DNA from: a bacterium
Lineage (GTDB): Bacteria; UBA8248; JACPRG01; G963555815
Reading direction: 5' to 3'
DNA: 64,000 bases
Assembly (NCBI GenBank): GCA_965218795.1
Contig: OZ244653.1
Location: 2,752,001 to 2,816,000, forward strand
In this document: piece after piece, positions 1,897 to 43,817 of the stretch
Layout: every line of letters begins with the position of its first letter
How positions within the stretch are numbered: the stretch's first letter is position 1
Notes under the pieces: model-generated
Told to the model about the DNA's origin: nothing
Databases searched by the model: none
What the model saw: only the letters and a program-made list of their open reading frames with translations
Program-made: the position numbers and the translations under genes

Positions 1897-2451
1897 TCAG
1901 GATTCGGAAGGCTCCCACTTGCAAAGCCCGTTGGCCCCAACCCGGAAAAAGTGATTGAACTTGCTTCGGTAGTTCTCCAGGGAGATGGTGGCCGCCAGTT
2001 CCACCAACTCCTCGTCGGTGAACTCGGTCTGCAGCTTCCCGAAGAGGTCGTCGCTCACGTCCTTCTCCGCTATCGTCATGCCCTCGGCCGCCTCGAGAGC
2101 CAGTCGCTCTCGACGGCTGTAAAGAGGGCTCTCCCGCCACTGGTCCACCGAGAGGAACTTCTCCGCGTCTTCTCCGTTATTCATTCCACGGAATGAATTG
2201 GAGTCCACTCAGAACGGACAGCCGTTGATCTGCGCTATCCGGACGCACAGAAGGGTCCGCAGCCCCACCGAGAGCAGCCCCGATTCGTCAATGGCCCGGC
2301 CGAATGCCTGGTTGGCGAGAAAGATGGACGGTCTGTGACTGGAGATCAGGGAGGAGTTCAACACCTCCCCATACGTTTCCCTCTGCTCCTCGAAGACCTT
2401 TTGAATCTCCGGCGGAACGGACGATGGGTCTGCTTCTCGGATTCGAGGCAC
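1897..2451 (-). CDS. AhpD/carboxymuconolactone-decarboxylase-like selenoprotein (184 aa, U81 in CxxU)
   Basis: Track ORFs 2209..2451 and 1897..2208 abut in frame across TGA (2209-2211), giving AQINGCPF-U-VDSNS where the family has NGCxxC; hairpin follows. Confidence 0.88.
2172..2203 (-). promoter_or_regulatory. Candidate bacterial SECIS (AhpD-like gene)
   Basis: mRNA after UGA: GUGGA-CUCC-A-AUUCAUUC-CGUG-GAAUGAAU-AAC-GGAG; 8-bp perfect stem, loop starts 18 nt after UGA and contains GU. Confidence 0.75.
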
Positions 2452-2654
2452 TCTCTTTACTCCTTACTACGCGCTCACGGTGACTCCAAAGTTTCGTGGA
2501 AGCGGGTTTTGTCCCAAATCGAATTCGGTGACCGAACCTCGACAGTGGCCGGAGCAGGCGAAAGAAATCCTTGCGTCATCCATCCTTTACCCTGTCCAGG
2601 CAGGTTCTCAGGTCCTGCATGCCCGGACCTCTCTCTCGCATGTCATCGGATGGC

Positions 2655-3722
2655 CTACCAGACCTCCGCCAGCAGCTCGTCGGGGTCGCCGAACTTCGAG
2701 GCCGACTCCCGAATCTCCGGGTCATCGAGGATCAGAAGGCGGCCGTCGTCTATCAGGGTTTCGCCGCCGACGGTGAACGTGGGGTTGAGGCATCCGCCGT
2801 CCCAGTGAAGGAGGCTGTCGTGTTCGGGGATCCAGGCCCAGTTCCCGACCGCGGCGTGATATGTCCCGGACCGGCGAAAGAGGATGGTGTCGGGCGCGCG
2901 GACCTGGAGGGCGTCGGAGACCGGCGCCTTGGGGTGCACCCCGATGGCCACCTCGCAGAAGTACCGCCCCTTCTCGAAGCGGTCCATCAGGCTTTCGAGC
3001 CACTTCGCCTCCTCGCCCCCTTCGACGCGCGTCACCCAGTGGTCTTCGACTGTGAGGCGGACGGGTTCACGCAGGTAGCCCGCGAATCCCTCCATCTGAT
3101 CGAAGACGACCGTCCCGTTTACAGGAGATTCCGGATGCTCGGCCATGTCTCCGCTGGGGAAGAACATCCATCCCCGGGGAGGCTGGTCCTCCTTGAACCC
3201 CGAAGCGAACGGCAGCCGGCCCCGTAAGTCTGTGCCGTTCGGGGCGGTCAGGTGAAAGGCGTCATCCTTTCCGCTCTGGGCGCGCTCCGACGTCTTGCGG
3301 AAGAGGGTCCAGAGCAGTTCCGGTGGAAACGTGGCCCATGAGCTCGTGAGCAGGGCGGGCGTCGGACAAATCAGGGAGACACAGCGTTTGCCCGTTCGCT
3401 TGAGGAAATGGCCGAAGTGGAGGTTGTCGACAATGGCCGCGTTCTCGAGCGCCTGGGCCGTAATCAGGACATCGGCCGATTCCATGGCCGTAAAAACCAG
3501 GGGTGAGATCGATTCCCCCAAACGATTTTCGTTTGCGTGGGAAGAGAGGATGTGGGTCTCCGCGCCCGCCTCCTCACATGCGAGAGCGATGGCCTGCACG
3601 ACGAGGGGGTCCACTTGGCCCGCGCGGTCCAGCCAGAGAAGGACTTTTTGGCCTTTTTCAATGAAGGCGTAGCCCTGGACACAGTTTCGTGCGCCCGGCA
3701 TCAAATCCATCAACTCATACAT
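2655..3722 (-). CDS. M29/AmpS (leucyl aminopeptidase)-like protein; superfamily also contains NicX-type dioxygenases
   Basis: Probable start MYELMDL; T.PNGTDL, PSGD...P, NGTVVFD, VTRVEGGEEA, EVAIGVHP, HWDG motifs. Confidence 0.65.
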   Translation of the reverse strand: MYELMDLMPGARNCVQGYAFIEKGQKVLLWLDRAGQVDPLVVQAIALACEEAGAETHILSSHANENRLGESISPLVFTAMESADVLITAQALENAAIVDNLHFGHFLKRTGKRCVSLICPTPALLTSSWATFPPELLWTLFRKTSERAQSGKDDAFHLTAPNGTDLRGRLPFASGFKEDQPPRGWMFFPSGDMAEHPESPVNGTVVFDQMEGFAGYLREPVRLTVEDHWVTRVEGGEEAKWLESLMDRFEKGRYFCEVAIGVHPKAPVSDALQVRAPDTILFRRSGTYHAAVGNWAWIPEHDSLLHWDGGCLNPTFTVGGETLIDDGRLLILDDPEIRESASKFGDPDELLAEVW

Positions 3723-3843
3723 GGAAAGGATCCTCCTCACCGTTCCGAAGAAGGCCTGGCTCCATTCGGGTGGAAATGCCGGCCGCTCCCCGGGGGTACC
3801 GAATCGATCAATGGATGGACCGATGCCGGGAGCCGTGAGGCTT

Positions 3844-4614
3844 TCACCCGATAACGCCCCCCGGGTGGCGCTTGAAGACCTCCCAATCATGCCCCGGCAG
3901 AACGATACCTCCGCGTTGGCGGACCCACTGGATCGCCCGAAGGGCTTCCACCAGGTCGTAATTGTTCGTCGGCCAGTCTTTTTCCAGACTCTCGTAGGAG
4001 ATCGCCGCATCGCTGGCAAGGACGACTTCGCCTTCGGAGGTCTCGACGGTCACAGCAGTCAGGTCCGGACTGTGCCCGCCCAGGCGATAGCAGCGGACCC
4101 CCGAAACGATCTCCTCCCCGTCTTCCACGAGGCGAAAGCGCCGGCCGAGCTCGTTTCTCAGGATCTCCAGGATCTCCGGCGGATACGCACCCGGAGAGGC
4201 CAGCCTCGGATGCGCGGGGTTGGAGACTGCCTCCCAGGCGGTTCGCGCCATCACCAACTCGGGCCTGGGGTAATTCGGCAGGTTCAGGCTGTGGTCCACG
4301 TGAAGATGCGTAAAGATGATGAGATCGACCCTGTCGGGGGTAATCCCGAGCGACTCGAGCTGGCTGGCGGGCTCGTTCTCCGGAAGAATTGTCCAGCCGC
4401 AACCTTCCTGGAGCCAGTCGGGAGCGCGTCTTGTTTGTTCTTCAGCGTGGCTCGCGTTCGCGCCGACGTCGACGAGGATGGTCTTGCCCTCGCCCTGGAG
4501 AACCCAGAGACAGAGAGGGATTTCTATCATCTCGCCGAAGCGCCCAGCGTTGAACAGAAAGGGGCCGGGGAGGCGTGACTCACCGTAATGGATGACTCGC
4601 ACTTGATAGGTCAT
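3844..4614 (-). CDS. N-acyl-homoserine-lactonase-family metallo-beta-lactamase-fold hydrolase
   Basis: Start MTYQVRVIHYG; ILVDVG, THLHVDH (HxHxDH), GGHSP, LASDA, PGHD. Confidence 0.88.
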   Translation of the reverse strand: MTYQVRVIHYGESRLPGPFLFNAGRFGEMIEIPLCLWVLQGEGKTILVDVGANASHAEEQTRRAPDWLQEGCGWTILPENEPASQLESLGITPDRVDLIIFTHLHVDHSLNLPNYPRPELVMARTAWEAVSNPAHPRLASPGAYPPEILEILRNELGRRFRLVEDGEEIVSGVRCYRLGGHSPDLTAVTVETSEGEVVLASDAAISYESLEKDWPTNNYDLVEALRAIQWVRQRGGIVLPGHDWEVFKRHPGGVIG

Positions 4615-6746: not shown

Positions 6747-7240
6747 ATGGCCGGAAACGAATTGGAGAATCTGAAGACGGGTCTGCCGCTCGACGCCGCC
6801 GGGAAGATTGTGGATGCCGCGCTGGCGGCGGGGCGAGCCGCGGGGATGCTGCCGCTGACGGTGGCCGTACTGGATGCTGGGGGGCACCTCGTTTCCTTCA
6901 AGCGGGAGGACGGCTCCGGCATCCTGCGGCCGGACATCGCCGTCGGCAAGGCGTGGGGCGCGTTGGGGATGGGGATGTCCACCCGGACGATCCGCGCGAC
7001 CGGCTGAAAGAACGAACCGCGTTTCAGGACGCCCTGGCTGCGGCCTCGGGGGGCCGCTTCGTCCCGGTTCCCGGCGGCGTTCTGATTCTGGATGCTTCGA
7101 ACGACGTGGTGGGCGCGGTGGGGATCAGCGGCGATTCGTCCGACAGGGACGAGTACTGCGCCATCGAGGGGATCCGCGCGGCCGGATACATTTCTTCCCC
7201 GGATGAGCCTTCGGCGGACTGGAAGGGATCGGGATTATGA
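6747..7240 (+). pseudogene. GlcG/HbpS-family heme-binding protein, frameshifted
   Basis: TVAVLDAGGHL..REDG...IAVGKAWGA in one frame and VPVPGGVLI..VGAVGISGDSSDRDE in another; an apparent extra GC in atccgcgcgacc at about 6990-7001. Confidence 0.8.
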
Positions 7241-8080
7241 GGGGGGCGGCGGGAGTGGACCGATGGGCCATTCCATCACCGCGACTCCGGTCAGCCAAAT
7301 GGGCTCCGGCTCATACAGCCAGGTCTGGCCCCGCGTGTTCCCGGCGAGGGTCGCGGCCGAGATCCAGTTGCGGATCTCGTTGGCGCCGTTTCCGCCGGCG
7401 TCAATCCGGTCCTGACTCCAACCGGCCAGCGCTTCGACCTTTCCCTCCTCCAGCAGGCCGAGGACGGCCCGGTCCCACTCCTGGTCAATCGTTCCCATCT
7501 CCGGCGTGCCGATCCAGTGAGACATGGCCCCGGTGGCCAGCACGCCCACCCGGTCCGTCTCGTCATAGGCTTCGAGCGCCCGCCTGACGGCCCGGCCCAA
7601 ATCGATGGCGCGCCCCGGCGGCGCCAGAGGCGCCGCGACGGTGTTCTGCAGAATCGGGACGAGGGGGATACCGAGCTCCCCCATCCTGTGGATGGGGGTG
7701 ATCACGGTATGGTCGATCACCGGATCGCGGCACAGGTGGGGATCGAATCCGGCATCCAGCAGATACTCGGTCAGATAGAAGCCCAGGGCCGCGTCGCCCT
7801 TTCGCCCGCCTTCCACGTCCGGCATCCGGCCCTCGCTGGCCACATTCCGAAAGACCGGGGCGGCTTGAACGGCCAGCGCCGGGAACTGATCGGGCGGAAA
7901 GACCTGGATGTGATCGTTGCCGAAAACGACCAGCACATCGACCTTGCGGTCGAGGAGGGTCTGCCCCATCCGCTCATAGACCGGAAAAACCCGGACCTGG
8001 ACCTCCGGCGGGGCGTCCGTCGCTTTCGTGACGAGGAGGGGGCTATGGCTGGCTCCGAATGCGGCGACGATATCAGCCAT
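7235..8080 (-). CDS. Extradiol ring-cleavage dioxygenase, LigB-type catalytic subunit
   Basis: ASHSP, GNDH, IDHT, ATGAMSHWIG, GANEIRNWI motifs. Confidence 0.9.
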   Translation of the reverse strand: MADIVAAFGASHSPLLVTKATDAPPEVQVRVFPVYERMGQTLLDRKVDVLVVFGNDHIQVFPPDQFPALAVQAAPVFRNVASEGRMPDVEGGRKGDAALGFYLTEYLLDAGFDPHLCRDPVIDHTVITPIHRMGELGIPLVPILQNTVAAPLAPPGRAIDLGRAVRRALEAYDETDRVGVLATGAMSHWIGTPEMGTIDQEWDRAVLGLLEEGKVEALAGWSQDRIDAGGNGANEIRNWISAATLAGNTRGQTWLYEPEPIWLTGVAVMEWPIGPLPPPPS

Positions 8081-8360
8081 CCCGGTTCGCCTCGAGAATG
8101 GAGCCGGGGAAAGAGAGGCCCGCCAGCGCCTCCAGAAAGGCTTCGTCGGAAATGTCGTTCCAGTACTGGGAAAACCGAAGGAGATACGGGTTCACGCCCA
8201 ACAGCCACAAGGCGCGGATGTCCGCTTTCTTGAGCGCCGCAATTTCTTCTTCTGTGAGGTCATATTCGCCGAGATACGCTTCGGGGTCGGCGCGATACCG
8301 GTCCCGCAGCCGGGGAAACTGAAGGTCGTAGACGATCCGGTTCAAGGCGGTCAGGGACAT
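8073..8360 (-). CDS. LigA-type small subunit of extradiol dioxygenase
   Basis: RYRADPEAYLGEYDLTEEEIAAL...GVNPYLL; overlaps the LigB start. Confidence 0.8.
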   Translation of the reverse strand: MSLTALNRIVYDLQFPRLRDRYRADPEAYLGEYDLTEEEIAALKKADIRALWLLGVNPYLLRFSQYWNDISDEAFLEALAGLSFPGSILEANRDG

Positions 8361-8551
8361 GGTCCATCCGCAAGGCGATTGAGATTCTTTCCTTTGCAGG
8401 GGTTGCATGGAGAATTCGGCCCGCGCCGGCCGCCGAATTCTCCTAATGCCATCCTACCACATTCCACCCGAGCCGCATCGAACGCCGGACGGAACGGAAG
8501 AGCGCCTTCGGCCGCCGCCGGCATCGAGCATGGCCGATGCACGCCCCTTGC

Positions 8552-9290: not shown

Positions 9291-10052
9291 GTGCTGCTCG
9301 AAAACAAAGTCATTGTCATCACCGGTTCCGCCAGGGGCATTGGCAAAGTGCTCGCCAGGGGAGTCGCCGCGCAAGGGGCCAAGGTCGTGGTGTCGGATGT
9401 CCTCGACGGCGAATCGGCTGCCGAGGAGATTCGAAATGCCGGGGGAGACGCAATGTTCGTCGGGGCGGATGTTTCCAACCGCCGGGAAACCGAGGCCCTT
9501 GCGAAGGCGACCCGCGACGCGTACGGCCGGATCGACGGATTGGTCAACAACGCCGCTGTTCATTCGGAGCTGAAATACATTCCCTTCGATCGGATTGAAG
9601 AGGAGGAATGGGACAGGGTCTTCGCCGTCAACGTCAAGGGCGCCTGGCTGATGACGAGGGCCGTCTATCCATTCATGAAGGAGCAGGGCGCCGGAAAGAT
9701 TGTGAACATCGGCTCGGGCACGCCGTTTAAGGGGATGCCCAAGATGTACCACTACGTCGTATCGAAAGGCGCGGTCATGACGTTGACCCGCGTCATGGCC
9801 CGGACGCTGGGTCAGGACGGCATCTGCGTGAACTGTGTCTCGCCGAGCCTGACGCGAAGCGACAGCGTAGTGGCCTTCCGCGGAGAAGAACGGATGCGGG
9901 AAGAGGAGGCGGCGCTCATCCCGACCCGTGCGATTCCACGCAGCGAGGTTCCCGAAGATCTGATCGGCGCCGTGGTCTTCTTTCTGTCCGACGGCGCCAG
10001 CTTCATCACCGGTCAGAACCTTCCGGTCAACGGCGGGGACCATATGCTCTGA
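9291..10052 (+). CDS. Classical SDR oxidoreductase (copy 1)
   Basis: TGSARGIG, NNAA, YVVSK, ITGQ. Confidence 0.95.
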   Translation: MLLENKVIVITGSARGIGKVLARGVAAQGAKVVVSDVLDGESAAEEIRNAGGDAMFVGADVSNRRETEALAKATRDAYGRIDGLVNNAAVHSELKYIPFDRIEEEEWDRVFAVNVKGAWLMTRAVYPFMKEQGAGKIVNIGSGTPFKGMPKMYHYVVSKGAVMTLTRVMARTLGQDGICVNCVSPSLTRSDSVVAFRGEERMREEEAALIPTRAIPRSEVPEDLIGAVVFFLSDGASFITGQNLPVNGGDHML

Positions 10053-10125
10053 TGCGCTGTTGCCGCAAGGGCGAGGTTCCGTGACCCTGCGCCCTCCCGC
10101 GAAGTCGGTATGAAGAGAGGATCCC

Positions 10126-10908
10126 ATGCTCTTGCAAGACAAGGTCGTCGTCGTGACGGGCGGCGCGCGGGGAATTGGCAAGGTCTACGCGGAAGGCATC
10201 GCGGCTGAAGGCGCCAAAGTCGTCGTTTCCGACATCCGCGATGGGGAGGAGACGGCCGAGGGGATCCGGGCCGCCGGCGGAGACGCCGTCTTTGTTCAGT
10301 GCGACGTCTCTCGCGGTGAAAGCTGCGATACCCTTGCCCGCGCCGCGCAGGATCGATACGGCCGCATCGATGGTCTGGTCAACAATGCGGCGCTGTACGC
10401 GGACCTGAAATACGTCCCATTCGACCAGATCGAGGAAGAGGAGTGGGACCGCGTCTTTGCCGTCAACGTCAAGGGGGTCTGGCTGATGACCAGGGCCGTA
10501 TACCCCTGTATGCGGGCCGAGGGATCGGGTGGAAACCTCGGAGGAGGCCCGAGGAAGATCGTCAACATTGCCTCGGGAACGCCTTTCAAGGGCACTCCCA
10601 AGACCCCCCATTATGTCGTCTCGAAGGGGGCGGTCGTGACCCTGACCCGCGTGATGGCCCGGACCTTGGGACCGGAGGGGATTAACGTCAATTGCGTTGC
10701 CCCGGGTCTGACGCTGAGCGAAAGCATCATGGAAACCCGGGCTGACATGATCGAGGAAGAAGATGCCAGGCAAATTCTGACCCGGGCTATTCCGCGAAGC
10801 CAGGTTCCTGAAGATCTCGTGGGAGCCATCGTCTTCTTTCTCTCGGAAGGGGCGGATTTCATCACCGGGCAGACGCTGCCCGTGGACGGCGGCTCCCATA
10901 TGAACTGA
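10126..10908 (+). CDS. Classical SDR oxidoreductase (copy 2)
   Basis: TGGARGIG, NNAA, YVVSK; short Gly-rich insert GSGGNLGGGP. Confidence 0.95.
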   Translation: MLLQDKVVVVTGGARGIGKVYAEGIAAEGAKVVVSDIRDGEETAEGIRAAGGDAVFVQCDVSRGESCDTLARAAQDRYGRIDGLVNNAALYADLKYVPFDQIEEEEWDRVFAVNVKGVWLMTRAVYPCMRAEGSGGNLGGGPRKIVNIASGTPFKGTPKTPHYVVSKGAVVTLTRVMARTLGPEGINVNCVAPGLTLSESIMETRADMIEEEDARQILTRAIPRSQVPEDLVGAIVFFLSEGADFITGQTLPVDGGSHMN

Positions 10909-10990: not shown

Positions 10991-13333
10991 CTAGAACCGG
11001 ATTCCGAGATTGAGGAGGCCGGCGTATTCCTGATCATCCGAACCCGGGCCGCCCGCTGTCGCCTCGCCGCTGAGCGCGAAGCGGCCCCAGCGATAGACCC
11101 CGCCCAGACCCAGCAGAACCCGGGTTGTCCTTGGTTCCCGACCTGAGCCGCTCTCCCGATACCTCAACGGCCGTTACCCCGCCCCTGAGCGTCTGCTCGA
11201 CATCCACCGAACCCCGAAGGGAGAGCCTGCGCGCCCCGCCGTCCCAGACGCGAGCGGTCTCCGCCCTTGAGTTGCTTCGCATCGGTGAGCTTGACCCGCG
11301 AGTTCACCGCGTCGGTGAACTTGTCCATGGAAATCCCGGAGCGGCTCACCCACACCCGAGGCGTCAGGCTCATTCTCTCGCCCAGCGCGATGCGCCGACC
11401 CGTCTCCAGGCTCAGGGAGTGACCGACCGCGCTCGCGTCCCCCATCAGCCGGCCCCGCCTGTCCGTGGAGATATCCACCTTGTAGCCGGTCACCGAGAGG
11501 CGGCCATCGACATAATAGCCGCTCGCGCCGCCCCAGGACACGCCCAACCCCGCGCCGAAGCCCTTCGCGTCGATATCCCCGCCCCCGACCGGTGATTCGA
11601 CGTCCGCCGAAGCCTGAACATGCCGCACCGAGATCGAGCCGGTGATGTCCTTGTTCCAGGGAAACGCGACGTCCACCCCGGCTTCCGCCGTGAGGCGCTT
11701 GAAGTCGTACGCCGCGCCCACGGTCGAGCGGTCGGGATCATGCGTTCCCCCCCCGCCCGAAAGCCTCACCCACACCGGCGAGTCCGGAGACCGCAGACGC
11801 TCCCCAGACGCTCCCCGGCCGGACCCCGGCCGTTCAGCCGAAGCAGGAATCCGGGAAGCCCCTCGTAGACGGCCGCGCGCGGCGCATACGCCTCGATGAA
11901 CTGGAGGCGCCCCTCCCTGGCGAGCACGCTGACGTCCCGTGCCCCGTTCGGGGCCGTGAGGCCGGTGGCGCCCGTCGCGCCGTCGTGCAGCTTCACGTTG
12001 TTGACCACGATCGTGGTCTCGCCGGCGTCGTTGCGAATCTCGCCATCGATGACGCGCGCTATCCTGCGGGCGCCGAGATTCGCCGAGACGTGGAGTTTGG
12101 GCGGATTCCCCGCCGCGCGGATCGCCACCCCGGAAGGCGCGCCGACGCTCCCCTTCGGCCCGATGACGACCTTGCCGCCGCCCGCGAGCCAGACCCCCGC
12201 CCCCTCGCCGGAGCCGCCCATCACCCGGCCGTTCACCGTGACCGTCTGCCGGCGGTAGCCGTCCTCGCCCATCCCGGCGGCGCGCACCACTTCTCCTTGG
12301 GTGTTGAGGGCGCCTATCCGGACGCCGCTCGCGTTCTCCCCGTCGGCGCTGACCGTTCCCCCACCCACGACGATGCTGATTTCTCCCATACCAGAATCAT
12401 GCCCGGCGTAAATGCCGTGGGAACCATCGCCTTCGGTGCTGATCTCGCCGTCCATCATGACGATTGTGATGTCGCCTTTGCCTTTGATGACGTTGCCGTC
12501 AGGGTCGGTGAGGGGGTTGAAGTCAGCATCGGTAGGGTTGCTATGCCGACTATAGATGCCGTAGGAATTCACCCCCCTCGTCGTGATACGGACGCCCCGA
12601 ACGCCGATGTCGATATCGCCTTCGGAGCCTCGATGATCACCGTTGATGCCGTGGGAGAAGGTGCTGCCGTAGGTGGGATCGATGTCCGTGCTTTCCGTTG
12701 TGATGGTTCCGCCTCGAACGTCGATGGTGATGTCGCCGGAGTTTTGACGAAGGCCATCGACGCCGTGGGACAGGACGCCCTTCGTCGTGATGGAGCCGCC
12801 TTGAACGCCGATGTTGACGTCGCTGTTGTCTCTACTATGGAAGCCGACTCTGACTCTACTATGCCAGCCGAAGACGGCGCTGGTATTAGCGCCCGTTGAC
12901 GTGAGGTCGGCGTCTCGAACGGCGATGTCGATGTTGCCGCCGCCGTCATGCAAGGCATAGACGCTGCTGGAGCCATCCGTCGTGACGCTGCCGCCTTGAA
13001 TGTTGATGTTGACGTCGCCGTCGCCTTGACGCTGGGCAGAGACGCCAACGGCGCCATTGCCGTCCGTCGTGACCGTGACGTTTTGAACGTCGATGTTGAC
13101 TGATGCCGTCCATAGATGCCGTGGGCAGCACTGTCCGTCGTCGTGATGGTGAGATCCTGAACGTCGATGTCGATGTCAGCCGTGGAACCGGCGGACTCCT
13201 CGCACTCGATCCGCTGTCCGGTCTCGGGCGTGTTGCTGCATACGGCCGTCTGAGCCTGCGCCTCTCCGACACTGAGAGCGAACGCCGCGGCCAGCATCAG
13301 GGCGATGGCGCCCATCCGCGCCCGCGCGCTCAC
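10991..13333 (-). pseudogene. Autotransporter (beta-helical passenger plus beta-barrel), multiply frameshifted
   Basis: Signal peptide (ALMLAAAFALSVGEAQA), repeated GGxITTxGxxSHGI passenger units, YAPRAAVYEGLP linker, barrel ending EYAGLLNLGIRF-TAG at 10991; split across several frames. Confidence 0.85.
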
Positions 13334-13629: not shown

Positions 13630-14007
<378 letters not shown>

Positions 14008-14064: not shown

Positions 14065-14826
14065 ATGCAGCTGAGAGACAAGGTCGTGATCGTTACGGGA
14101 TCGGCCCGCGGAATCGGGAAGGTGTACTCCAAAGCCATTGCCGCGGAAGGCGGCAAGGTCGTCGTATCCGATATCCTCGACGGTGAAGGCGCGGTCGAAG
14201 AAATCCGCGGTGCGGGCGGAGAGGCGATCTATGTTCAGGCGGATGTGACGGACGAGGCAAGCGTTGAGCATCTCGCGGGAGCCGCCAAAGCGGAGTTCGG
14301 ACGCATCGACGGGCTGGTCAACAACGCCGCCTTGTTCGCCGACATGCGCTATGCGACCTTCGATCAGGTCACGGTCGAGGAGTGGGACCGAATGATGGCG
14401 GTCAACGTCAAAGGCGTTTGGCTGACTTCCCGGGCCGTATACCCGCATATGAAAGGGCAGGGCTCCGGAAAAATCATCAACATCACGTCCGGCGTTCCGT
14501 TTAAGGGAACCCCGGTTTTCGCGCATTACACGGTGTCGAAAGGGGCCGTCATTACGCTGACCCGGGTGTTGGCGAGATCGATGGGGAAGGACGGCATCTG
14601 CGTCAACGCGGTCGGGCCGGGGTTGACCCGCAGCGAGAGCCTGGCCGCCGCCCGGGGCGACGAGCTCATGGATGCCGACGAAAAGCTCCAGGTCGCCAGC
14701 CGCGCCATTCCACGCGGTCAGGTGCCCGAGGATATCATCGGCGCCATCGTGTTTTTCCTCTCGGACGGAGCGGATTTCATTACCGGCCAGACCCTGGTGG
14801 TCGACGGCGGGTCACATATGAACTGA
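14065..14826 (+). CDS. Classical SDR oxidoreductase (copy 4)
   Basis: TGSARGIG, NNAA, YTVSK. Confidence 0.95.
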   Translation: MQLRDKVVIVTGSARGIGKVYSKAIAAEGGKVVVSDILDGEGAVEEIRGAGGEAIYVQADVTDEASVEHLAGAAKAEFGRIDGLVNNAALFADMRYATFDQVTVEEWDRMMAVNVKGVWLTSRAVYPHMKGQGSGKIINITSGVPFKGTPVFAHYTVSKGAVITLTRVLARSMGKDGICVNAVGPGLTRSESLAAARGDELMDADEKLQVASRAIPRGQVPEDIIGAIVFFLSDGADFITGQTLVVDGGSHMN

Positions 14827-14969: not shown

Positions 14970-16370
14970 ATGAACTCAAATATCGGCTCGAATGGCGCGG
15001 GCGCGAACCTCAACGGTCGGATCCCCTACCGGGATATGCGGGGCCTCCTTGATCACCTGGAGGAAAACGGGGAGCTCCTTCGAATCTCCAAGCCCGTCCC
15101 GCCCAAGTATCTCCATACCCTTCTGGCCAAGTCGGATCAGGCCGTCCTGTTCGAAAACGTTCAGGACTATGACATCCCGGTCGTCGGAGGGCTGATCGGG
15201 TCCAGACGCCGCCTGGCTCTGGGTCTGGCGAGTGACGAGAAAGTGCTGGGGCGGAGCTTCATGGAAGCTCTGGAGAATCCGCTTCCGGCCGAGGTCACAT
15301 CCGACGGCCCGGTCAAAGAGGTCGTGAAGGTTGGGGATGAGGTGGATCTCACGGACATTCCCATCCCTTTCCAGCACCGCAAAGACGGCGGGCCTTATAT
15401 CTCGGCCGGAATCGCCGTATCCAAAGACGAGGAAGGCCGCCGGAACGTCGGATGCTACCGCCTGATGTACCGGACGCCGAACGAGACCGGGATTGACCTC
15501 GTGTCGCCGTCGGACATGCGGTTCACCTACCAGCGGGCCCTGGACCGGGGCGAATCGCTGCCCATCGCCATCGCCCTCGGAACCGGTATCCCGGAGATCC
15601 TCTCGGCAGCCTACAAGGCCCCCCCGGGTTTCGATGAATTCGCGGTGGCGGGCGCGCTCTACGGGGAGCCGATCCAGCTCACCAAGTGCGCCACGGTCGA
15701 TCTGGAGGTGCCGGCTTCAGCGGAGATCGTTCTGGAAGGGGAAATCTCGGCGGACGGCTGGACCATCGACGAGGGACGGTACGGGGACTTCACCGGTCAT
15801 CAGTGCTCGATCCGGTGGAACCCGGTGTTCAAGGTCAAGGCCGTTACCCACAGGAAGAACCCCATCTTCCAGACCGTGTTCATGCCCTGGGAGAACGACT
15901 GGCTGGAGGCCCCGCCCATGGAGGCCGCGGGCTGGCGGGCGCTCCGCGAGGCCAGCGTCCAAACCACGGCCGTCTATTCCACGCCGGCGAGCTGCTGTTA
16001 TTGGCACTTGTTCGCTTCCATCAAAAAGCGGCCGGGCGAGGGAAAAAACGCGCTGCTTGCGCTGATGTCTCTCCATTCGGTCAAGCTCGTGATCGTGACG
16101 GACGATGACGTGGACATCACGAACTGGATGGAGCTGGAGCGGGCGATGGCCTTCCGTGTCCAGCCGGACGAAGACGTGGTCATCGTCTCAGGGGCCCGGG
16201 GCAAGCATTTGGACCCGACGCTGCGGGCCTCTCAATTGCCGAAGGGCGCGCTGCCCACGACGTCGAAGATGGGAATCGACGCCACCATCCCGGAAGGGAT
16301 CGATCGCTCGGAGTACGAGCTCTTGGAATACCCCTTCCTGGACGAGGTGAAACTCGAGGAATACTTGTAG
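14970..16370 (+). CDS. UbiD-family prFMN-dependent (de)carboxylase
   Basis: DGGPYIS, NVGCYRL, AEIVLEG, variant EGRYGDF, DDDVD, KMGIDAT. Confidence 0.92.
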   Translation: MNSNIGSNGAGANLNGRIPYRDMRGLLDHLEENGELLRISKPVPPKYLHTLLAKSDQAVLFENVQDYDIPVVGGLIGSRRRLALGLASDEKVLGRSFMEALENPLPAEVTSDGPVKEVVKVGDEVDLTDIPIPFQHRKDGGPYISAGIAVSKDEEGRRNVGCYRLMYRTPNETGIDLVSPSDMRFTYQRALDRGESLPIAIALGTGIPEILSAAYKAPPGFDEFAVAGALYGEPIQLTKCATVDLEVPASAEIVLEGEISADGWTIDEGRYGDFTGHQCSIRWNPVFKVKAVTHRKNPIFQTVFMPWENDWLEAPPMEAAGWRALREASVQTTAVYSTPASCCYWHLFASIKKRPGEGKNALLALMSLHSVKLVIVTDDDVDITNWMELERAMAFRVQPDEDVVIVSGARGKHLDPTLRASQLPKGALPTTSKMGIDATIPEGIDRSEYELLEYPFLDEVKLEEYL

Positions 16371-27423: not shown

Positions 27424-28077
27424 ATGAAGCCGAGAGGCGAATTCGGCAGAAATCCGCCGAGCAAGTTCTATTCGTTCCTGTTCTTGAACTGGTGGAAGCT
27501 CATCAGGATCAAGTTCAACAAGAAGGTCTCCGCCGTCTATGACAATTTCCCGAAAGTGTCGGAGTTGGGCTCCATGATCCCGACGGTGGAGCTTGAAACC
27601 ACGGACGGACGCCGAATCAACACGGCCGACTTCATTGGGAAGAAGCTCCAGATATTCGAGTTCGGCGCTATCACGTGACCGCCCTATCGGCGGCAGGTGC
27701 CGCACATGGAAAAACTGGCGGAAAAATATGGGGACGACCTCGAGATCTTCAACATTTACGTCCGGGAGCCGCATGCCAATGAGGGGATTTTCGGAAAGTA
27801 TGACGCGCACGGCTCTTATGAACAGAAGATGGGTTACGCCAAAGAGCTGGTTCAGCAGAAGGCCATCAAGAACGTGACTGTCCTCGTCGACGGAATGGAG
27901 CAGAAGACCCACGAAACCTTCGGCTGGCTGCCGAACATGGTGTACGTCGCGGACCGGGAGGGGACCATCGTCTACAAGGCGTCCTGGACGAAACCCGAGG
28001 TCCTGGAGGGTGTGATTCAGGAGGTTCTGGCCGAGGAGGAGGAAGAAGAAAAGGACAAGGAAGCCGTCCCCGCGTGA
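27424..28077 (+). CDS. Deiodinase-like (thioredoxin-fold) selenoprotein (217 aa, U85)
   Basis: Strong RBS before ATG 27424; in-frame TGA 27676-27678 in FEFGAIT-U-PPYRRQ; downstream IYVREPH matches the deiodinase FGSCTUPP and IYxxEAH motifs. Confidence 0.88.
27690..27703 (+). promoter_or_regulatory. Candidate SECIS (deiodinase-like gene)
   Basis: GCGGC-AGGU-GCCGC hairpin, loop starts 16 nt after UGA. Confidence 0.65.
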
Positions 28078-28124: not shown

Positions 28125-28439
28125 TCATTCGACCGCCTTTTTCAATTTCGCCAGGACGCGCCGGAACCGGGGGAGCACGACGACGCGGGCAATGGCCTTC
28201 CGGACTTCTTCCAGGTCCAGCGCGGCGCCTGCCCGAAGGCGCACATCCGCCCGGTCAGCGGCGAGTTGAACGTCTGCCGATTCGACTTCCGGGAGCCCTT
28301 CCAGGGCTCGCTTCACCCGATCTGCTCAGAGACCACAGAGCATTCCCGAGACCTGAACCGTCTCTCCGTCCGGAGTGGGGGCGGGCTCGCCCGGATCCGC
28401 CGCCGGCTCTACAAAAAAGTTTTTGAGCTTGAGTTCCAT
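28125..28439 (-). CDS. Heavy-metal-associated (HMA) domain selenoprotein (104 aa, U38)
   Basis: Open frame from ATG 28439: ETVQVSGMLCGL-U-ADRVKRALEGLPEVESADV, i.e. GMxCxxC with TGA (28326-28328) at the second Cys; GAGCCCU-GGA-AGGGCUC hairpin follows. Confidence 0.8.
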
Positions 28440-35147: not shown

Positions 35148-35157
35148 TCTCGGCTCC

Positions 35158-36711: not shown

Positions 36712-36859
36712 GAATCACTCCCTGCTGGATCAGGACGGGCATCCCCCATCCAATCATCCTGTTGGAACGCTGAAAATCCCCGCGCCGGCCGGTTGCAGGC
36801 AGACTTCAGCCCGCCCCCGGAGTGGCAAGGCGCTGTGGAGGAGCGGTTTCAGGAAAGTC

Positions 36860-38263
36860 TCAATCCGGAACGGTCTTGAATCCGGCAGCGCGCCAGGCAT
36901 TCATGCCGCCTGCGACGTTCTTGACTTCTTGATAGCCGTGTCGGAGCAGCAGGCTGGCACCGGTGCTGCTTCGGATCCCTCCGCCACAGATGATGGCCAG
37001 GGTATCATTTTTTGAAAACGGCAGTTCCAGGTCATTCTTCCACATTTTTTTGAAATTCATGTGGAATGCGCCCTCGATATGGCCGTTGTCCCACTCTTCG
37101 TCTTCGCGCACGTCGACCACCTGGAAGCCGTTGATTCCGTTTTCCGAAATGTATCGGTGTAGATCCTCGACGGAAATCTGGGGCAACTCCTTCCCGGCAA
37201 GGCCCGCTTCCTTCCATGCCTCCAGACCCCCTGCGACGAACCCCCGGACGTGACGGTCCAGTCCCAGGAATCCCATTTTGTGAATCGCCTCCTGAGCATC
37301 CCGGTCCTGTTCGCCAAGAAGAATGAGCGGCGTTTCAGGTTCAAGGACCCAGCCGATTCGCTGCTCGAATTCACCGGCCGAGAGCGGGATGTTCACAGCC
37401 CCGGCAACATGACCACGCCCGAAGTCTTCCGGCTCGCGCATATCGAGAAGTCGGACTTTCGGGTCCGAAACCATCAAGTCCCGGACCTCTGTAGACTGGA
37501 GCGGCTGGGCTTCAGGTTCTTCCATGGTCAAGGGGAGGCGGCCTTGGTTGATGGCGACGATTGGGTGAATATTCGCGGGCCGGTCCGGGAGGCCCTCGGT
37601 CATGTAGCGGACGAATGATCCCTGATCCGGCTGCCGGAAGGCCTGATTATGGCGCCGCTCAAAACCCAATGTTGTGGCAAACTTGCCACTCAGCGACCGT
37701 CCTCACGTGGAGCCGCCGACATGGCCGGGCCAGACTTCCGTGTAATCGGGAAGGTCCGCAATGCGGGGCAAAGCGCGGTCGAAGAGTTCGGCTGCGCCTT
37801 CCTCCGAGCGCTGCGCCAGATCGGGCCGCGCGATATCATCCACCAGGATGAAATCTCCGGTGCACAACATCCAGGGCTCCTCCGCCCGGCTCAAATCCGA
37901 AATGGCCACGGTGATGTGTTCCGGCCGGTGTCCCGGTGTGTGCATCATCTCCAGCCGTACGGATCCCATCTGGAGGGTATCGCCGTCTTTGACGCGCGTA
38001 GCGGGGTATTGGATATCTGCTAGATCATGGAGGATCAACTCGGCTCCGGCGAGATCGGCGAGGCGTCGGGCGCCGGAGACATGGTCGGCATGCAAATGTG
38101 TGTCAATCACGTATCGGATCTTGACACCTTGCTTCCGGGCGATGGCTGCAAAGGGTCCAGGATCCCACAGGGGATCGATGACCGCGCATTCACCGCCCCC
38201 GAGACAGCCGCATACATAAGAGACGCACCCGGTCTCCTTGCGGACGACCTGCTCGAAGAACAT
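36860..38263 (-). CDS. Persulfide-dioxygenase (ETHE1-like MBL) plus two rhodanese domains; selenoprotein (467 aa, U187)
   Basis: THLHADHVSG, TPGH, TGDF, PGHVGGST-U-GRSLSGKFATTLGFERRHN (family GHxxGSxCG..TIGxE) across TGA 37703-37705, in frame with the rhodanese part (CGGGIRS); GUGGCA-AGUU-UGCCAC hairpin after UGA. Confidence 0.88.
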
Positions 38264-38832
38264 CGTGAATTCCTCCATGCTGGATATCGCTGCCGGATAG
38301 CGCTCGGGATCCCGCCGACGCTTTTGCGGGACACAGAGACGAATTTTTCGACATCGGGAATCATATCGCCAGGGGACGGAAGCATTGAAACCATCCAGGA
38401 ATATCGACGGCTGGTCTTCAACGGTACAGAATGTGGGGCGGAGTTTACTTCAATTTGGGCGAAAGATGAAGCACTTTTTCTTTTCTCCGCAATCCGTTGC
38501 AATCCGGTTGGAGGGCGATCTGGACGGCCGGCCGCGATCGATGAATCCTACTGATTCACATTGCCTCGATTGTGGGTGCCTACAAGAACCTGTCGAATTC
38601 AGACATCTATCACGAGGCGAAGCGCATTGAGCTGGATCGGAGCAGAGAGGCGAATTCAGAAGAGGAAGAGGCGGTGGATGAGGGGCGGAGACATTGTAGC
38701 CGCATTTATGAACCTCCGAAGGAAAAAGTGAAACCTCCGCTTACCAGCCGGCCCTAAAAGCGTGCTATGATTTGTCAGGTGCACGTGCAGATTTTGCCCG
38801 AACGAAGGTTGCACCCCTGGAGGACAAGAACC

Positions 38833-39927: not shown

Positions 39928-41028
39928 ATGCAGGCAAAGGTATTCCGTGTGCCCATGGGGTCACCGGACGATATCTCCGGCGTCGTCGATTTGATTGAGA
40001 GCGGAGCGTGTCAACCGGAGGAAGTGGTTGCGGTCCTGGGGAAAACAGAGGGGAACGGCTGCGTGAATGATTTCGCCCGCGGTTTCAGCAACTTCGTTCT
40101 GGCGGATTATTTCGGGACGAAGATCGGGATCCCGCGGGACGATGTGACTCATCGGATTGCCCTGGTGATGTCGGGCGGCACGGAAGGCGCAATGAGCCCT
40201 CACTTCACGCTTTTCGCGAAGACGGAGGACGGCGAGGCCAATGGCGACAAACGACTGGCCATGGCGTCCGGGCGCACCCGGGATTTTCTGCCCGAGGAAA
40301 TCGGCCGCATGCCTCAGCTCCTGGAAACCGCCGATGAGGTCCGCCGCTTGATGGCGGAGGCACAGATTGAAAGTGTCGAAGACCTCCATTTCGTCCAGAT
40401 GAAGACGCCGTTGGTCACGACGGACCAGGCGGAAGACGCCTTGAGGCGGGGAAAAACGGTATGTGCCGACAATACGTACAAGTCGATGGGTGATTCGCGG
40501 GCGGCATCCGCCCTGGGGATTGCGCTCGTCACGGGTGAGGTCACGGAAGACAGGCTGAGCGATGAGGTCATCGGGCATGACGGGTCGCTGTACTCAGGCG
40601 TCGCGTCCACTTCTTCGGGTATCGAACTTCAGTGCAATGAGATTGTGGTTATGGGGAACAGCGCAGCGTGGGGGGGCGACCTTGTCATTGGACACAGCGT
40701 GATGAAGGATGCCCTGGACCGGGACGCCGTCAAGGAAGCGCTGGCGAGCGCGGGGCTTCTTTTTGATTGGAGCCTGTCGCCCGATCAGCGGGGGCGGGTG
40801 GTCAATATCCTGGCCAAGTGTGAGGCCAGTCCGGACGGCCGGATTCGCAGGCGCCGCCATACCATGCTGGACGATTCGGACATCAACAGCACGCGGCACG
40901 CGCGAGCCGTCGTGAACGCCGTCATCGCATCCATCGTGGGCGACCCGATGGTTTATGTTTCCGGTGGGGCGGAGCACCAGGGCCCTCCGGGTGGAGGGCC
41001 CGTGGCAGCCATCGTGCGGGTGGAATGA
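39928..41028 (+). CDS. Cyanuric acid hydrolase/barbiturase-family ring-opening amidohydrolase
   Basis: GKTEGNGCVNDF, VMSGGTEG, SMGDSRAASALG, STSSG, VSGGAEHQGPPGGGP. Confidence 0.93.
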   Translation: MQAKVFRVPMGSPDDISGVVDLIESGACQPEEVVAVLGKTEGNGCVNDFARGFSNFVLADYFGTKIGIPRDDVTHRIALVMSGGTEGAMSPHFTLFAKTEDGEANGDKRLAMASGRTRDFLPEEIGRMPQLLETADEVRRLMAEAQIESVEDLHFVQMKTPLVTTDQAEDALRRGKTVCADNTYKSMGDSRAASALGIALVTGEVTEDRLSDEVIGHDGSLYSGVASTSSGIELQCNEIVVMGNSAAWGGDLVIGHSVMKDALDRDAVKEALASAGLLFDWSLSPDQRGRVVNILAKCEASPDGRIRRRRHTMLDDSDINSTRHARAVVNAVIASIVGDPMVYVSGGAEHQGPPGGGPVAAIVRVE

Positions 41029-41148: not shown

Positions 41149-41544
41149 TTATTCCACAACCGCAATCGCTTCAATCTCGACCAGGAACTTCGTGGTTGCG
41201 AGACCCTGAAGGACACAGAGCGTGTTGGCGGGCGGCTGGTCCTTGAAGTGACGGCCCACAAGGTCCCTCGCTTTCTGGGCGTCTTCCTGCTTGACGACGA
41301 AGGTGGTCAGCTTGACGACGTCTGCGAAAGAGGCGCCCGCTTCGGCCAGGACGTCCCGGAGGTTCGACATCACCTGTTCCCCCTGGGCGTCAAAATCGCC
41401 TTCTCCAACGATGTTCCCCTCGGCATCCCCCGCCACCTGGCCGGCGCAGAAGACCAGCCGGTTCGCGCCTTTTACTTCAATCCCGTGTGAATATGCGCTG
41501 AACGGCTTGTGGAGCGTTTCCGGTTGCAGGATTCTTTTTTCCAT
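41149..41544 (-). CDS. RidA/YjgF-family protein
   Basis: YSHG, AGQVA, DVVKLTTF, VEIEAIA. Confidence 0.92.
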   Translation of the reverse strand: MEKRILQPETLHKPFSAYSHGIEVKGANRLVFCAGQVAGDAEGNIVGEGDFDAQGEQVMSNLRDVLAEAGASFADVVKLTTFVVKQEDAQKARDLVGRHFKDQPPANTLCVLQGLATTKFLVEIEAIAVVE

Positions 41545-41754
41545 TCATTCATCTCCTTGAAGTCTGCGCGGCGCGGAAGAATTTCCACTCGCAATGGACC
41601 CTTTGAAGCCCGCTCCCGGATTTGTCGAACCCCGGTGGTTCGTTGAGACGGCCTTCCGAAAATAACAGATGGTTCGAGGAAGTGTCACGAACTTGCTTTT
41701 CAAAGGCCGGGTGGAGGGCCTTCCGGGCTTGGATCGGTTCGCCCTCCCAGTCGC

Positions 41755-42972
41755 TCAAGGCTTCTCCGTCGTCGAGGGAAGGAGCCAGGCGGCAGCCGCG
41801 GCGGGTATCCAGGCCAGAAAGAGAAGGGCGATGGCGGTCGGCAATCCGACGCGATCGGCCAGAAAGCCGATGTAAAGAATGCCTGCGCTCCCCACCGTCC
41901 ACGTGACCCCCATCATCAGGCTCGACGCGGTGCTCGCGCTTTCGGGAACCAGTTCCTGAGCCAATGCGATTGTGACCCCCAAGGTTGCGATCGCCACCAT
42001 GCCGAGCGCAGCGAGAAAGATCCACAGAAGCGGTCCCCGGGTCCAGAGGAATCCGTAGGAGAGCGGGATCGAAGAGACCATTGTGACCAGGAGGATTCGC
42101 CGGCGTCCCACACGGTCCGCCAATCGCCCTCCAATCAGACTGCCCACCGCCCCCGCTCCGATGAATGTCGAAACCGAGGCGCCCGCGGGCACCAGCCCAT
42201 AGCCCTTTTGTATCATGAGCAGGGGCAGGAAGCTGCTCAAACCGACCATCACGCACGTTCGCAGGGCCTCCATAATCCAGAGCAAGGCCAGCGGACGGAA
42301 GTTTCTCCGAAACGGTTTCAGGAATTCCTCGAATCCGGTCCAGGGCTGATGGGCTTGAACCGGTTCCCAACGGCTCCGGACGGCGAGGGCGATCGCCAGC
42401 GCCGGCAGAGCCGTCAGGAGAAGGTAATCGGGTCCGAAGTACGCGGCGACGGGAGCGGCCATGAGCGGGCCGACCGCGTAGCCCGTCCGCCCCGCGGTCA
42501 TGAAGACGGCCATGCTGAAAGCGCGGGACCGGCCCGCGGCCTCGCCTGCGATGGCGGCCGATTGGGGGTGAAAGGCGGCCGTCGAGAGGCCCGCCACGCA
42601 CAAGAGGAGGAGCGCCACCCAGTAGGCCGGCGCCCACGCTATCGCGCTGATCAGGACGCCGGTCACCAGAAGGCCCCAGACCGGAAACTTGAACCTGGGG
42701 AAGCGGTCTGACAGAAACCCGAAGGGCAGTTGTCCCAAAGATGCAAGTAAAGAATACGCCATCAGCAATGCGGCCCCAAGCGTCATCGACAATTGAAACT
42801 TGGGCAGAAGGATCGGCAGATAAACCGAAAGAGAGCCTGTATATGAATCCAGCATGAGATGGCCGGCCGCGACCCAGTACACCTGTGCGTGAACCGCTCT
42901 CGGCCCGGAAACCGGTGGAGCGCTCTGTTGAACGGGCGCTGAGATCTCCAGATCGGTTTCGGTTGCGCTCAT
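41755..42972 (-). CDS. MFS transporter (Fsr-like)
   Basis: GHLMLD, QLPFGFLSDR, AFHP, GGRLADRVGRR; about 12 TM. Confidence 0.9.
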   Translation of the reverse strand: MSATETDLEISAPVQQSAPPVSGPRAVHAQVYWVAAGHLMLDSYTGSLSVYLPILLPKFQLSMTLGAALLMAYSLLASLGQLPFGFLSDRFPRFKFPVWGLLVTGVLISAIAWAPAYWVALLLLCVAGLSTAAFHPQSAAIAGEAAGRSRAFSMAVFMTAGRTGYAVGPLMAAPVAAYFGPDYLLLTALPALAIALAVRSRWEPVQAHQPWTGFEEFLKPFRRNFRPLALLWIMEALRTCVMVGLSSFLPLLMIQKGYGLVPAGASVSTFIGAGAVGSLIGGRLADRVGRRRILLVTMVSSIPLSYGFLWTRGPLLWIFLAALGMVAIATLGVTIALAQELVPESASTASSLMMGVTWTVGSAGILYIGFLADRVGLPTAIALLFLAWIPAAAAAWLLPSTTEKP

Positions 42973-43124
42973 GTCGCTTGGTCACTAGAGTCTGGAATGG
43001 GGCGCTCGCCAAGGAATCCGGAGCATCATACAACGAATGGGTTCACCCTGGGGATATGCCGAGGAAGCACGACGCAATGGAGGAATGTCCGCGATCATCC
43101 GTTCAAGAGGATTGGACGGCAAAG

Positions 43125-43817
43125 TCATCCTGATTCAACCGCTTGCAGCAAAATCTCCCGATATCCCTCCAATGCGGCCTCACCCGTTTTCCCCGCCGGC
43201 TTGACGACTCGCAGGATCCCGTTTTCGTCGAAGGCTTTTTCCGCGCCGAAAGGGTTGTGGTAGACCTCGCCGTTTGGCAGCACAAACGTCGGACTGGTCA
43301 TGGGCCGCCCTTCTTCATCCCGCATACGAAGAGCTTCCCGGCAATCCTCCATGATCCGTCTCTTATAGGTTCCATTGTCGAAGTCTTTCGTGAATCGATC
43401 CACATCCAGACCCGCTTCGCCGGCGATCTCGATCAGGGTGTTCCGCAGGTGAATCCACCGGCTTTCATGATACAAGGCTCGTCGCACGCGGTAGTCATAG
43501 TCGAAGGCGCGGAGCGGATCCTGGGCGAAGGCGCATTCATACGCTTCGGACGCGAGGGAAACGGCATCCGGATATCCCTCGTTGTCCCATGGGCGGAAGT
43601 CGCAGAGCGGCTCTTCTTGGGCCGCGAGCGGGATTTCCTGGTCGATGACGTGCCTGGGCGCTGGGGTGCCGTCGATGATGTCCAGCGGGAAAGCCCGCCA
43701 GTGGATGATGAGTGGGTCCTGAAATTCGGAGAGAACGGCTTTCAGCCTCGCCGAGGCGACGTACGCCCAGGGTCACTGGTACTCAGCATAAACGTCGATA
43801 GTGGGAGGGTTCGTCAT
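43125..43817 (-). CDS. DsbA/FrnE-family thioredoxin-fold selenoprotein (230 aa, U15)
   Basis: ATG 43817: MTNPPTIDVYAEYQ-U-PWAYVAS..IHWRAFPL, open through to the 43125..43487 ORF with cis-Pro motif SPTF; TGA at 43773-43775; GCCUC-GGC-GAGGC hairpin. Confidence 0.82.

Follow-up and report, generated by a model that had tools for sequence, protein, structure and literature searches.

The window analysed here is a 64,000-nucleotide (nt) stretch of bacterial DNA (assembly GCA_965218795.1, contig OZ244653.1, positions 2,752,001 to 2,816,000; GTDB lineage UBA8248, JACPRG01), and window coordinates are counted from its first letter. Five genes between positions 1897 and 43817 each carry an in-frame TGA, which the initial annotation had read as a selenocysteine (Sec, U) codon followed by a hairpin resembling a bacterial selenocysteine insertion sequence (SECIS). 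The five TGAs were indeed located at the positions and in the contexts it gave (CPFU, ITUPP, CGLU, GSTUG and EYQUPW), and it is highly probable that all five are working selenoprotein genes in which UGA is decoded by the standard bacterial route.

The AhpD/CMD-family gene (1897..2451, -) encodes 184 amino acids (aa), from a GTG start after an AAGGAG ribosome-binding site to the TGA at 1897-1899. Its Sec codon (2209..2211, -) specifies Sec81 in CPFU, a CxxU motif, and its SECIS-like hairpin (2179..2198, -) has a stem of 8 base pairs (bp) with the loop CGUG 18 nt after UGA. The deiodinase-like gene of thioredoxin fold (27424..28077, +; 217 aa, with a hydrophobic N-terminus) begins at an ATG after GGAGGAGGAG, a start picked for this ribosome-binding site. 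Sec85 lies in GAITUPPY (27676..27678, +), and the hairpin (27690..27703, +) has 5 bp and the loop AGGU 16 nt after UGA. Convergent with it stands a small, free-standing gene for a metal-binding HMA-domain protein of 104 aa (28125..28439, -), with Sec38 in GMLCGLU (28326..28328, -) and a 7-bp hairpin (28293..28309, -; loop GGA, 23 nt after UGA).

The fourth gene (36860..38263, -) encodes a CstB-type persulfide dioxygenase of metallo-beta-lactamase (MBL) fold joined to a pseudo-rhodanese and a rhodanese, 467 aa from ATG 38263 behind a GGAGG ribosome-binding site. Sec187 lies in GGSTUG (37703..37705, -), and a 6-bp hairpin (37674..37689, -) carries the loop AGUU 19 nt after UGA. With the alternative start ATG 38278 the protein has 472 aa (P0004) and the Sec position becomes 192. 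Finally, the DsbA/FrnE-like gene (43125..43817, -; 230 aa) has Sec15 in EYQUPWAY (43773..43775, -) and a hairpin (43745..43757, -) with the loop GGC 20 nt after UGA, whose stem comprises 5 bp here and 7-8 bp in orthologs. A sixth Sec candidate was sought throughout the 64-kb window, and none was found.

Past the TGA, the frames remained open for 103 (AhpD-like), 132 (deiodinase-like), 66 (HMA), 280 (CstB-like) and 215 (DsbA-like) codons to the next stop. On read-through, every one of the five codons lay inside a Pfam domain that scored over its gathering threshold. The scores were 39.1 against 23 bits for CMD (PF02627, residues 44-123), 59.3 against 27 bits for T4_deiodinase (PF00837), 52.1 against 24.8 bits for HMA (PF00403, residues 27-84) and 45.8 against 25.6 bits for DSBA (PF01323, residues 6-164), and the CstB-like protein contained Lactamase_B and two rhodanese stretches. 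The first three proteins belong to the AhpD/CMD family, the deiodinase family (with an FGSxTUPPF-type motif) and the HMA family (with a GMxCxxC-type site), respectively.

At the level of narrower models, the AhpD-like protein scored below both NF053654, the YciW-related (seleno)protein (148.5 against 310 bits), and TIGR01926 (40.2 against 81.8 bits), and its subfamily was therefore not placed. The deiodinase-like protein did not reach the cut-off of NF038285, the deiodinase family protein (78.9 against 250 bits), and the HMA protein, with its single Sec, is not a member of NF041115, the UxxU metal-binding (seleno)protein (35.6 against 95 bits).

The proposal that each TGA occupies a family Cys position was borne out: opposite each of the five, homologs had a Cys of redox or metal-binding function or their Sec site, and no other residue. 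U81 of the AhpD-like protein aligned with the second Cys of CxxC (CAFC in 2gmy, CAYC in 7xw1), and the deiodinase-like U with the Sec site of mouse Dio3 (4tr3, Cys in the crystallised construct) and of Dio2 (9h48). The DsbA-like U aligned with the first Cys of the CPWC motif of FrnE (5cnw); the second position of this motif is Ala (UPWA) in all 19 orthologs. With Sec for the first Cys and Ala for the second, the protein is a single-selenol variant. Since Pfam found only DSBA and thioredoxin-like domains in its 230 aa, it has no crotonase domain.

Full-length alignment of the CstB-like protein to 3tp9 and 3r2u recovered the CstB-type layout, that is, an MBL persulfide dioxygenase, a pseudo-rhodanese and a catalytic rhodanese with an active-site Cys (in IICGGGIRS). 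In 3r2u its U fell on chain residue 225; allowing for the 24-residue tag, this is Cys201 of CstB, and 3tp9 also has Cys there. The Cys-Gly dipeptide of the type (C201-G202) was replaced by U-G; because U stands at the Cys201 column, which held Cys in 120 of the 120 best database homologs (MAFFT alignment), the protein is regarded as a Sec variant and not as a non-member.

Conservation was assessed in 51 genomes of the organism's own phylum present in the collection, where the orthologs kept the TGA at the same column down to ~30% identity. For the AhpD-like gene this held in 20 of 20 loci (29-86% identity, both flanks conserved), with relatives in 48 of the 51 genomes. The deiodinase-like column carried TGA in all 22 covering high-scoring segment pairs (HSPs) from 20 loci (relatives in 48/51 genomes), and the DsbA-like column in all 19 covering HSPs (relatives in 49/51), one further locus, L086, stopping short of the column.

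The two remaining families were less widespread. HMA relatives occurred in 10/51 genomes (E <= 1e-6). TGA was present in the orthologs of G003, G004 and G005, which together with the gene in the window gives four CxxU forms, in addition to one UxxU form; TGC, encoding the second Cys of GMTCxxC, was found in six HMA-domain HSPs from five related loci. The open frames around two of these five Cys loci span 807 and 854 aa, lengths that would suit P-type ATPases. CstB-like relatives occurred in 7/51 genomes (E <= 1e-40), and the Sec form in six of the 51 (the organism itself, G002, G041, G039, G036 and G001), as well as on one metagenome contig. The homolog of G007, 39% identical, has TGC at the Sec column. 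For this gene, a pattern scan of metagenomes returned 1 contig, and a related-locus search of genome contigs returned only 7 distant loci of 35-40% identity.

As the initial annotation had predicted for standard callers, open reading frame (ORF) calling with table 11 split all five genes at the TGA. Full-length Sec-form orthologs are moreover absent from the protein database, where the best match of the CstB-like protein was 52% identical, compared to 64-70% for its genomic orthologs. Both observations fit an explanation by nonsense mutation or sequencing error at the TGAs, which would make the genes pseudogenes or split genes. This explanation is already contradicted by conservation and is extremely improbable: codon and column stay the same between genomes whose copies are 29-86% identical and conserved on either flank, the hairpins co-vary, and a functional Cys position is struck in all five genes. 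Independent assemblies agree as well, since contigs from three other studies covering 36800-38400 differed at 0, 3 and 11 positions, and all three retained TGA, not TGC or TGT, at 37703-37705. A low-depth A>C at 37696, considered as a variant of the CstB-like gene, was rejected, as it came from a diverged contig of another organism.

The Sec decoding machinery was complete: selA, selB, selD and tRNA-Sec were all found in the genome (1 contig, rated 98.9% complete). The selB gene adjoins selA at 4.76 Mb (386.7 and 565.8 bits, over the cut-offs), selD scored 319.1 bits, also over its cut-off, and contains an in-frame TGA of its own, and a single tRNA-SeC with the anticodon TCA was detected by ARAGORN.

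From the codons, aligned residues, conservation and machinery observed, we infer Sec insertion itself and the role of each protein. SelD would supply selenophosphate, SelA would turn Ser-tRNA(Sec) into Sec-tRNA(Sec), and SelB would bring the latter to UGA with the help of the SECIS hairpin located 3' of the codon within the coding sequence. Sec would stand in for a catalytic or ligand Cys in all five proteins, namely the second Cys of AhpD CxxC, the second Cys of HMA GMxCxxC, the first (nucleophilic) Cys of DsbA/FrnE CPWC and the CstB-type Cys201, in addition to the Sec site of deiodinases.

Frames that open on TGA read-through would also arise if UGA had been reassigned to Trp, Gly or Cys, generally or by context, and selenium played no part; for other systems, Cys has been reported to be inserted for Sec when selenium is short. 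However, TGA is the main stop codon of this genome, ending 1387 of the 2161 ORFs of >=400 aa, so it is not reassigned genome-wide. All genes of the Sec machinery were found, only Cys or Sec was ever aligned with the TGAs, and 19 of 40 candidates from the genome-wide scan described below were ordinary stops between genes or past a domain. Reassignment is accordingly considered very improbable, and decoding as Sec is preferred.

The organism had also been described as rich in selenoproteins, and the genome scan supported this with at least ~28 Sec genes, mostly of thiol-oxidoreductase types. The frame was open on either side of 42,854 TGAs; best-of-six coding scores were obtained on both flanks of 293 of them, and 49 of these had a hairpin. 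Four of the five window sites were recovered and the DsbA-like one was missed, which corresponds to a sensitivity of roughly 80%. Codon-usage and dicodon log-odds alone had been rejected for this purpose in favour of the best-of-six-frames test, because long antisense ORFs contaminate the training set and the frames were poorly separated.

Forty candidates were submitted to a Pfam test, with the window sites, three identical repeat copies and the two shortest candidates left out. In 21 of them a domain covered the TGA (8 CMD, 5 OsmC, 4 AhpC/TSA, 3 DSBA and 1 GrdB, the GrdB profile stopping 2 residues short of the UxxCxxC motif). The other 19 were rejected as ordinary stops between same-frame neighbours, as stops past a domain or for want of a Pfam match; L119, of the last kind, has a CxxU motif. 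The figure of ~28 is a lower bound: besides the 21 it counts the five genes of the window, selD and one more putative DsbA-like Sec gene, a match containing one TGA.

A search for Sec-type FdhA with TIGR01553 yielded 20 matches, all of them short of the cut-off and free of internal stops. The Sec trait therefore rests on SelD and on proteins of thiol-oxidoreductase type, and this rich selenoproteome, lacking a Sec-type FdhA in that search, is made of AhpD-, OsmC-, Prx- and DsbA-like proteins. The largest bacterial selenoproteomes comprise 57-63 genes according to a 2026 review (PMC13188914). Standard callers cut the five genes here and ~28 genes in the genome in two, and likewise across the 51-genome phylum; the redox proteome of the phylum is therefore systematically misread.

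Two further observations were made during the scan. The GrdB-like protein (L117; G000:C1:760975-762276, -) matched PF07355 with 405.9 bits and has the motif SAUGTCTRCG. An identical 29-residue context around an in-frame TGA recurred at three places of G000:C1, near 217377 (-), 2872094 (+) and 2927269 (-), with 1856-4519 open codons upstream and 91-121 after the TGA; these are repeated giant genes or mobile elements, and the three sites were not counted as selenoproteins.

The CstB-like gene was considered separately with respect to function. Downstream of it lie a 4Fe-4S and NrfD fusion (36711-35158, -), a molybdopterin oxidoreductase (35207-32280, -) closest to the PhsA and DmsA models, whose cut-offs lie far above its scores, and a protein of the TauE/SafE sulfite-exporter family (32185-31370, -). 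The order cupin, CstB-like gene, FeS/NrfD was common to G002, G001 and the metagenome contig L109; it was not seen in family f4 within flanks of 1.5 kb. Elsewhere in the window (17428-18243, -), between the Sec genes, an ordinary Cys-containing two-domain rhodanese resembling 3-mercaptopyruvate sulfurtransferase was found (146 bits against a cut-off of 250).

For CstB itself, a 2026 preprint (PMC12934615) describes the C201-G202 dipeptide as residing in a mobile loop and mimicking glutathione at the Fe(II) site. According to this preprint, C201 is persulfidated, undergoes self-S-sulfonation with O2 and moves the sulfonate over ~27 A to the persulfidated rhodanese Cys408, whereupon thiosulfate is released; the C201A variant is inactive.

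By analogy, the enzyme encoded in the window would follow the CstB mechanism with selenium in place of sulfur at this residue. The mobile-loop U-G would accept sulfane sulfur as a selenenyl-sulfide, which would be oxidised at the Fe site and passed to a persulfidated rhodanese Cys, with release of thiosulfate. The protein is thus predicted to convert persulfide to thiosulfate with O2 and Fe(II), and it probably acts together with the adjoining Psr/Phs-like molybdoenzyme and TauE exporter in the metabolism of sulfur compounds. Its Sec form provides a natural Sec/Cys pair at the self-sulfonated shuttle residue named by the preprint and could serve as a direct test of that mechanism.

It was also asked whether such a protein is already listed. 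The CstB-type family is absent from the 119-family table of PMC13188914, and the words lactamase, hydrolase, MBL, dioxygenase, persulfide and glyoxalase are absent from its main text; the supplementary tables of the review might hold the family. A literature search for a Sec-containing CstB or a bacterial MBL-fold selenoprotein returned none, and the supplementary tables of the BSepDB paper or of the review might list one. The gene may found an uncatalogued selenoprotein family characterised by a Sec-Gly "glutathione mimic", by an intermediate shuttled on selenium (Se-S-SO3-like) and, in family f1, by coupling to a Psr/Phs-like molybdoenzyme and a TauE exporter, a proposal made tentatively and with doubt slightly outweighing confidence.

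The hairpins formed the remaining line of evidence. In the bacterial SECIS model of bSECISearch, the loop lies 16-37 nt after UGA and has G in its first two positions. In our chance test, a hairpin qualified if it had >=5 bp and if its loop began 16-23 nt past UGA with G among the first two positions, and with this implementation a SECIS-like stem-loop was present just 3' of UGA in all five genes. Under these rules, some qualifying hairpin was found at 18.3% of 4322 random in-frame codons from long ORFs of the same genome, and the share of codons with a hairpin at least as stable was 0.064 (AhpD-like), 0.020 (deiodinase-like), 0.008 (HMA), 0.025 (CstB-like) and 0.064 (DsbA-like). Rank values were similar when the comparison was made with the 1387 true TGA stops.

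The hairpins were kept in register in orthologs, with compensatory changes in three families. In the AhpD-like family, the loop CGUG stood at 18 nt in 14 of 20 loci, four pairs of the stem were changed on both sides, and 87.5% of cells were paired compared to at most 58% when the positions were slid. Of the 21 distinct deiodinase-like sequences, 18 had the loop AGGU, AGUU or CGGU at 16 nt, with two pairs changed on both sides and 88.9% of cells paired (at most 79% when slid). Among 18 DsbA-like sequences, 17 had the loop GGC at 20 nt; in four sequences one pair changed from G-C to U-A, and 91.0% of cells were paired (at most 51% when slid). The shuffle counts for pairing are not probabilities, because the sequences are related and also coding.

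Natural Cys forms allowed a further comparison in two families. The HMA loop GGA at 23 nt was present in 4/4 CxxU forms compared to 1/6 Cys forms, and the CstB-like loop AGUU at 19 nt in 5/5 Sec forms (with 4 bp in one of them) and not in the Cys form L029. Two side observations were made under the same hairpin rules. In L081 of the same phylum (G037:C26:1922-2110), an HMA-domain gene has two in-frame TGAs in GMIUPIU (UxxU) and no qualifying hairpin after the second. Tandem deiodinase-like Sec genes occur in G039 and G038 (L057 and L065; G039:C1:2279058-2280396, -), and in each pair the conserved hairpin is missing from one of the two copies.

Several points weigh against the interpretation of the five genes as selenoprotein genes and of the fourth as a working CstB variant. 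Each hairpin taken alone is weak evidence, because the chance shares range from 0.008 to 0.064, and the rules applied are our own reading of the published bacterial SECIS model. The claim of five hairpins 16-23 nt after UGA with G in the first two loop positions stood as regards position and loop, but folding made only four of them the minimum-free-energy structure; the DsbA-like one was not, although it is still the hairpin conserved in orthologs. An Rfam search of the window gave 0 matches, and all five proteins stayed below the curated cut-offs of the NCBIfam selenoprotein models, their highest score being the one against NF053654 given above. Only one contig from an RNA library fell on the CstB-like gene; this 274-nt contig (37378-37651), whose run bears the label of a sponge metatranscriptome, lies 3' of the UGA and is no proof of transcription or of habitat, and the chemistry of CstB requires O2. 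The presence of selenium in the five proteins is itself argued from sequence. Taken jointly and with their conservation, the five hairpins are not weak evidence, and the comparative evidence is stronger.

The five Sec genes within 42 kb represented the densest cluster found in the genome; a second one, of four, was located near 3.99-4.03 Mb. When genes were placed randomly in simulations, p values of 0.002, 0.005 and 0.019 were obtained for 28, 35 and 45 genes, and of 0.023, 0.063 and 0.235 for 47, 60 and 80 genes. The clustering thus exceeds chance only modestly.

Two observations favour a dedicated selenoprotein island, co-regulated or horizontally acquired, over a chance local excess: the density itself, with p ≈ 0.002-0.02 for 28-45 randomly placed Sec genes, and the distance of 6-7 kb that separates the deiodinase-like from the CstB-like gene in G001 and G002 as well. 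Such an island is nevertheless unlikely: the five genes lie on both strands with unrelated genes between them, the GC content is flat (0.56-0.65), p rises to 0.06-0.24 with 60-80 Sec genes, and the second cluster exists. The intervening genes encode UbiD decarboxylases, short-chain dehydrogenases, LigAB, peptidases, an F420-type LLM (luciferase-like monooxygenase) oxidoreductase, a cyanuric acid hydrolase and a major facilitator superfamily transporter, and the five Sec genes are not one operon.

The surroundings contained several further groups of genes. Two UbiD decarboxylases, the subunits of a LigAB ring-opening dioxygenase and three short-chain dehydrogenases (299-1708, -; 14970-16370, +; 7235-8408, -; 9291-10908, +; 14065-14826, +) suggest a neighbourhood of aromatic-compound degradation. 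A cyanuric acid amidohydrolase (AtzD/TrzD, 519 bits), a RidA-like protein and two DUF1989 urea-amidolyase-associated proteins were found at 39928-41028 (+), 41149-41544 (-), 18410-19051 (-) and 20713-21516 (+).

At 46462-56187 (+), glutamine-synthetase-like, GATase class II, GXGXG and glutamate-synthase-domain genes are followed by sarcosine-oxidase-like subunits (2Fe-2S/FAD/GCV_T of 992 aa, GCV_T and DAO), a run that presumably resembles the N-methylglutamate pathway for methylamine use (gmaS, mgsABC, mgdABCD). At 11164-12953 (-), an autotransporter beta-domain ORF of 203 aa shares 10 bases with the end of another ORF, of 395 aa, for which neither Pfam nor NCBIfam gave a match; the two may be one frameshifted gene or two genes.

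E. coli fdhF, with a SECIS just 3' of its UGA, is the paradigm of bacterial Sec decoding. The present genome shares with that system (SelA, SelB, SelD, tRNA-Sec, SECIS) the in-frame UGA, the hairpin at 16-23 nt whose loop has G among its first two positions, and the complete set of four machinery genes, and beyond the FdhA-less trait nothing unusual was detected in it. The mechanism is a textbook one, so the overall novelty is low to moderate, and most of what was found is ordinary selenoprotein biology, with the exception of the CstB-like MBL-rhodanese gene. The added value lies in the corrected annotation, in the phylum-wide pattern and in a probable new Sec form of CstB.

Table 1 of PMC13188914 gives 119 prokaryotic selenoprotein families or subfamilies. 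Among them are AhpD-like and CMD-like proteins (CxxU), a deiodinase-like family (UxxC), DsbA-like form 1 (UxxC) and form 2 (DxxUP, crotonase-fused), the UxxU metal-binding protein, a Sec-containing P-type ATPase and five rhodanese forms. The four genes other than the CstB-like one are variants inside such listed families, with UPPY instead of UxxC, CxxU instead of UxxU and UPWA lacking the resolving Cys.

The AhpD-like protein has the same PF02627 domain and CxxU motif as the AhpD-like and CMD-like entries of that table, and it resembles the CMD-family debrominase Bmp8 (6ohi, E = 8.8e-7). The deiodinase-like protein shares PF00837 with vertebrate deiodinases, its FGAITUPPY corresponding to FGSCTCPPF of the crystallised Dio3, and differs from the bacterial deiodinase-like family as listed in PMC13188914 (UxxC) by its UPPY, with no Cys at +3. 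A bolder suggestion is that these deiodinase-like and Bmp8-like (AhpD-fold) selenoproteins, present in almost every genome of the phylum, might act as reductive dehalogenases.

Like the known HMA-type selenoproteins (NF041115, UxxU; Sec P-type ATPase, UxxC), the HMA protein has Sec in the metal-binding motif of an HMA domain; in contrast to them, it is a free-standing protein of 104 aa with CxxU and a single Sec. The DsbA-like protein has PF01323 and Sec at the first Cys of CPWC in common with DsbA-like forms 1 and 2 and FrnE, whereas its ExxUPWA, which lacks a resolving Cys, sets it apart from forms 1 and 2.

With S. aureus CstB (3r2u), the CstB-like protein shares the arrangement of its three domains, residues 5-458 aligning at E = 5e-69. 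Neighbouring residues named in the CstB preprint (F in GDF, R in RPDL and the L after the dipeptide) align, as does the rhodanese C-x-G-I-R-S loop, and C201-G202 corresponds to U-G. The two differ in Sec for Cys201 and in the metal motif, which is HxHxDH here and HxHxDF in CstB, and also in that the present gene adjoins a Psr/Phs-like molybdoenzyme and TauE. SelTryp of Kinetoplastida, as described in PMC1557815, likewise has an N-terminal MBL fold followed by two rhodanese domains; by that description it is set apart as a eukaryotic protein whose Sec lies in a C-terminal CxxU tail and not in the active-site loop of the MBL domain. Among the listed cases, SelTryp is the nearest to a Sec-containing CstB-like protein.

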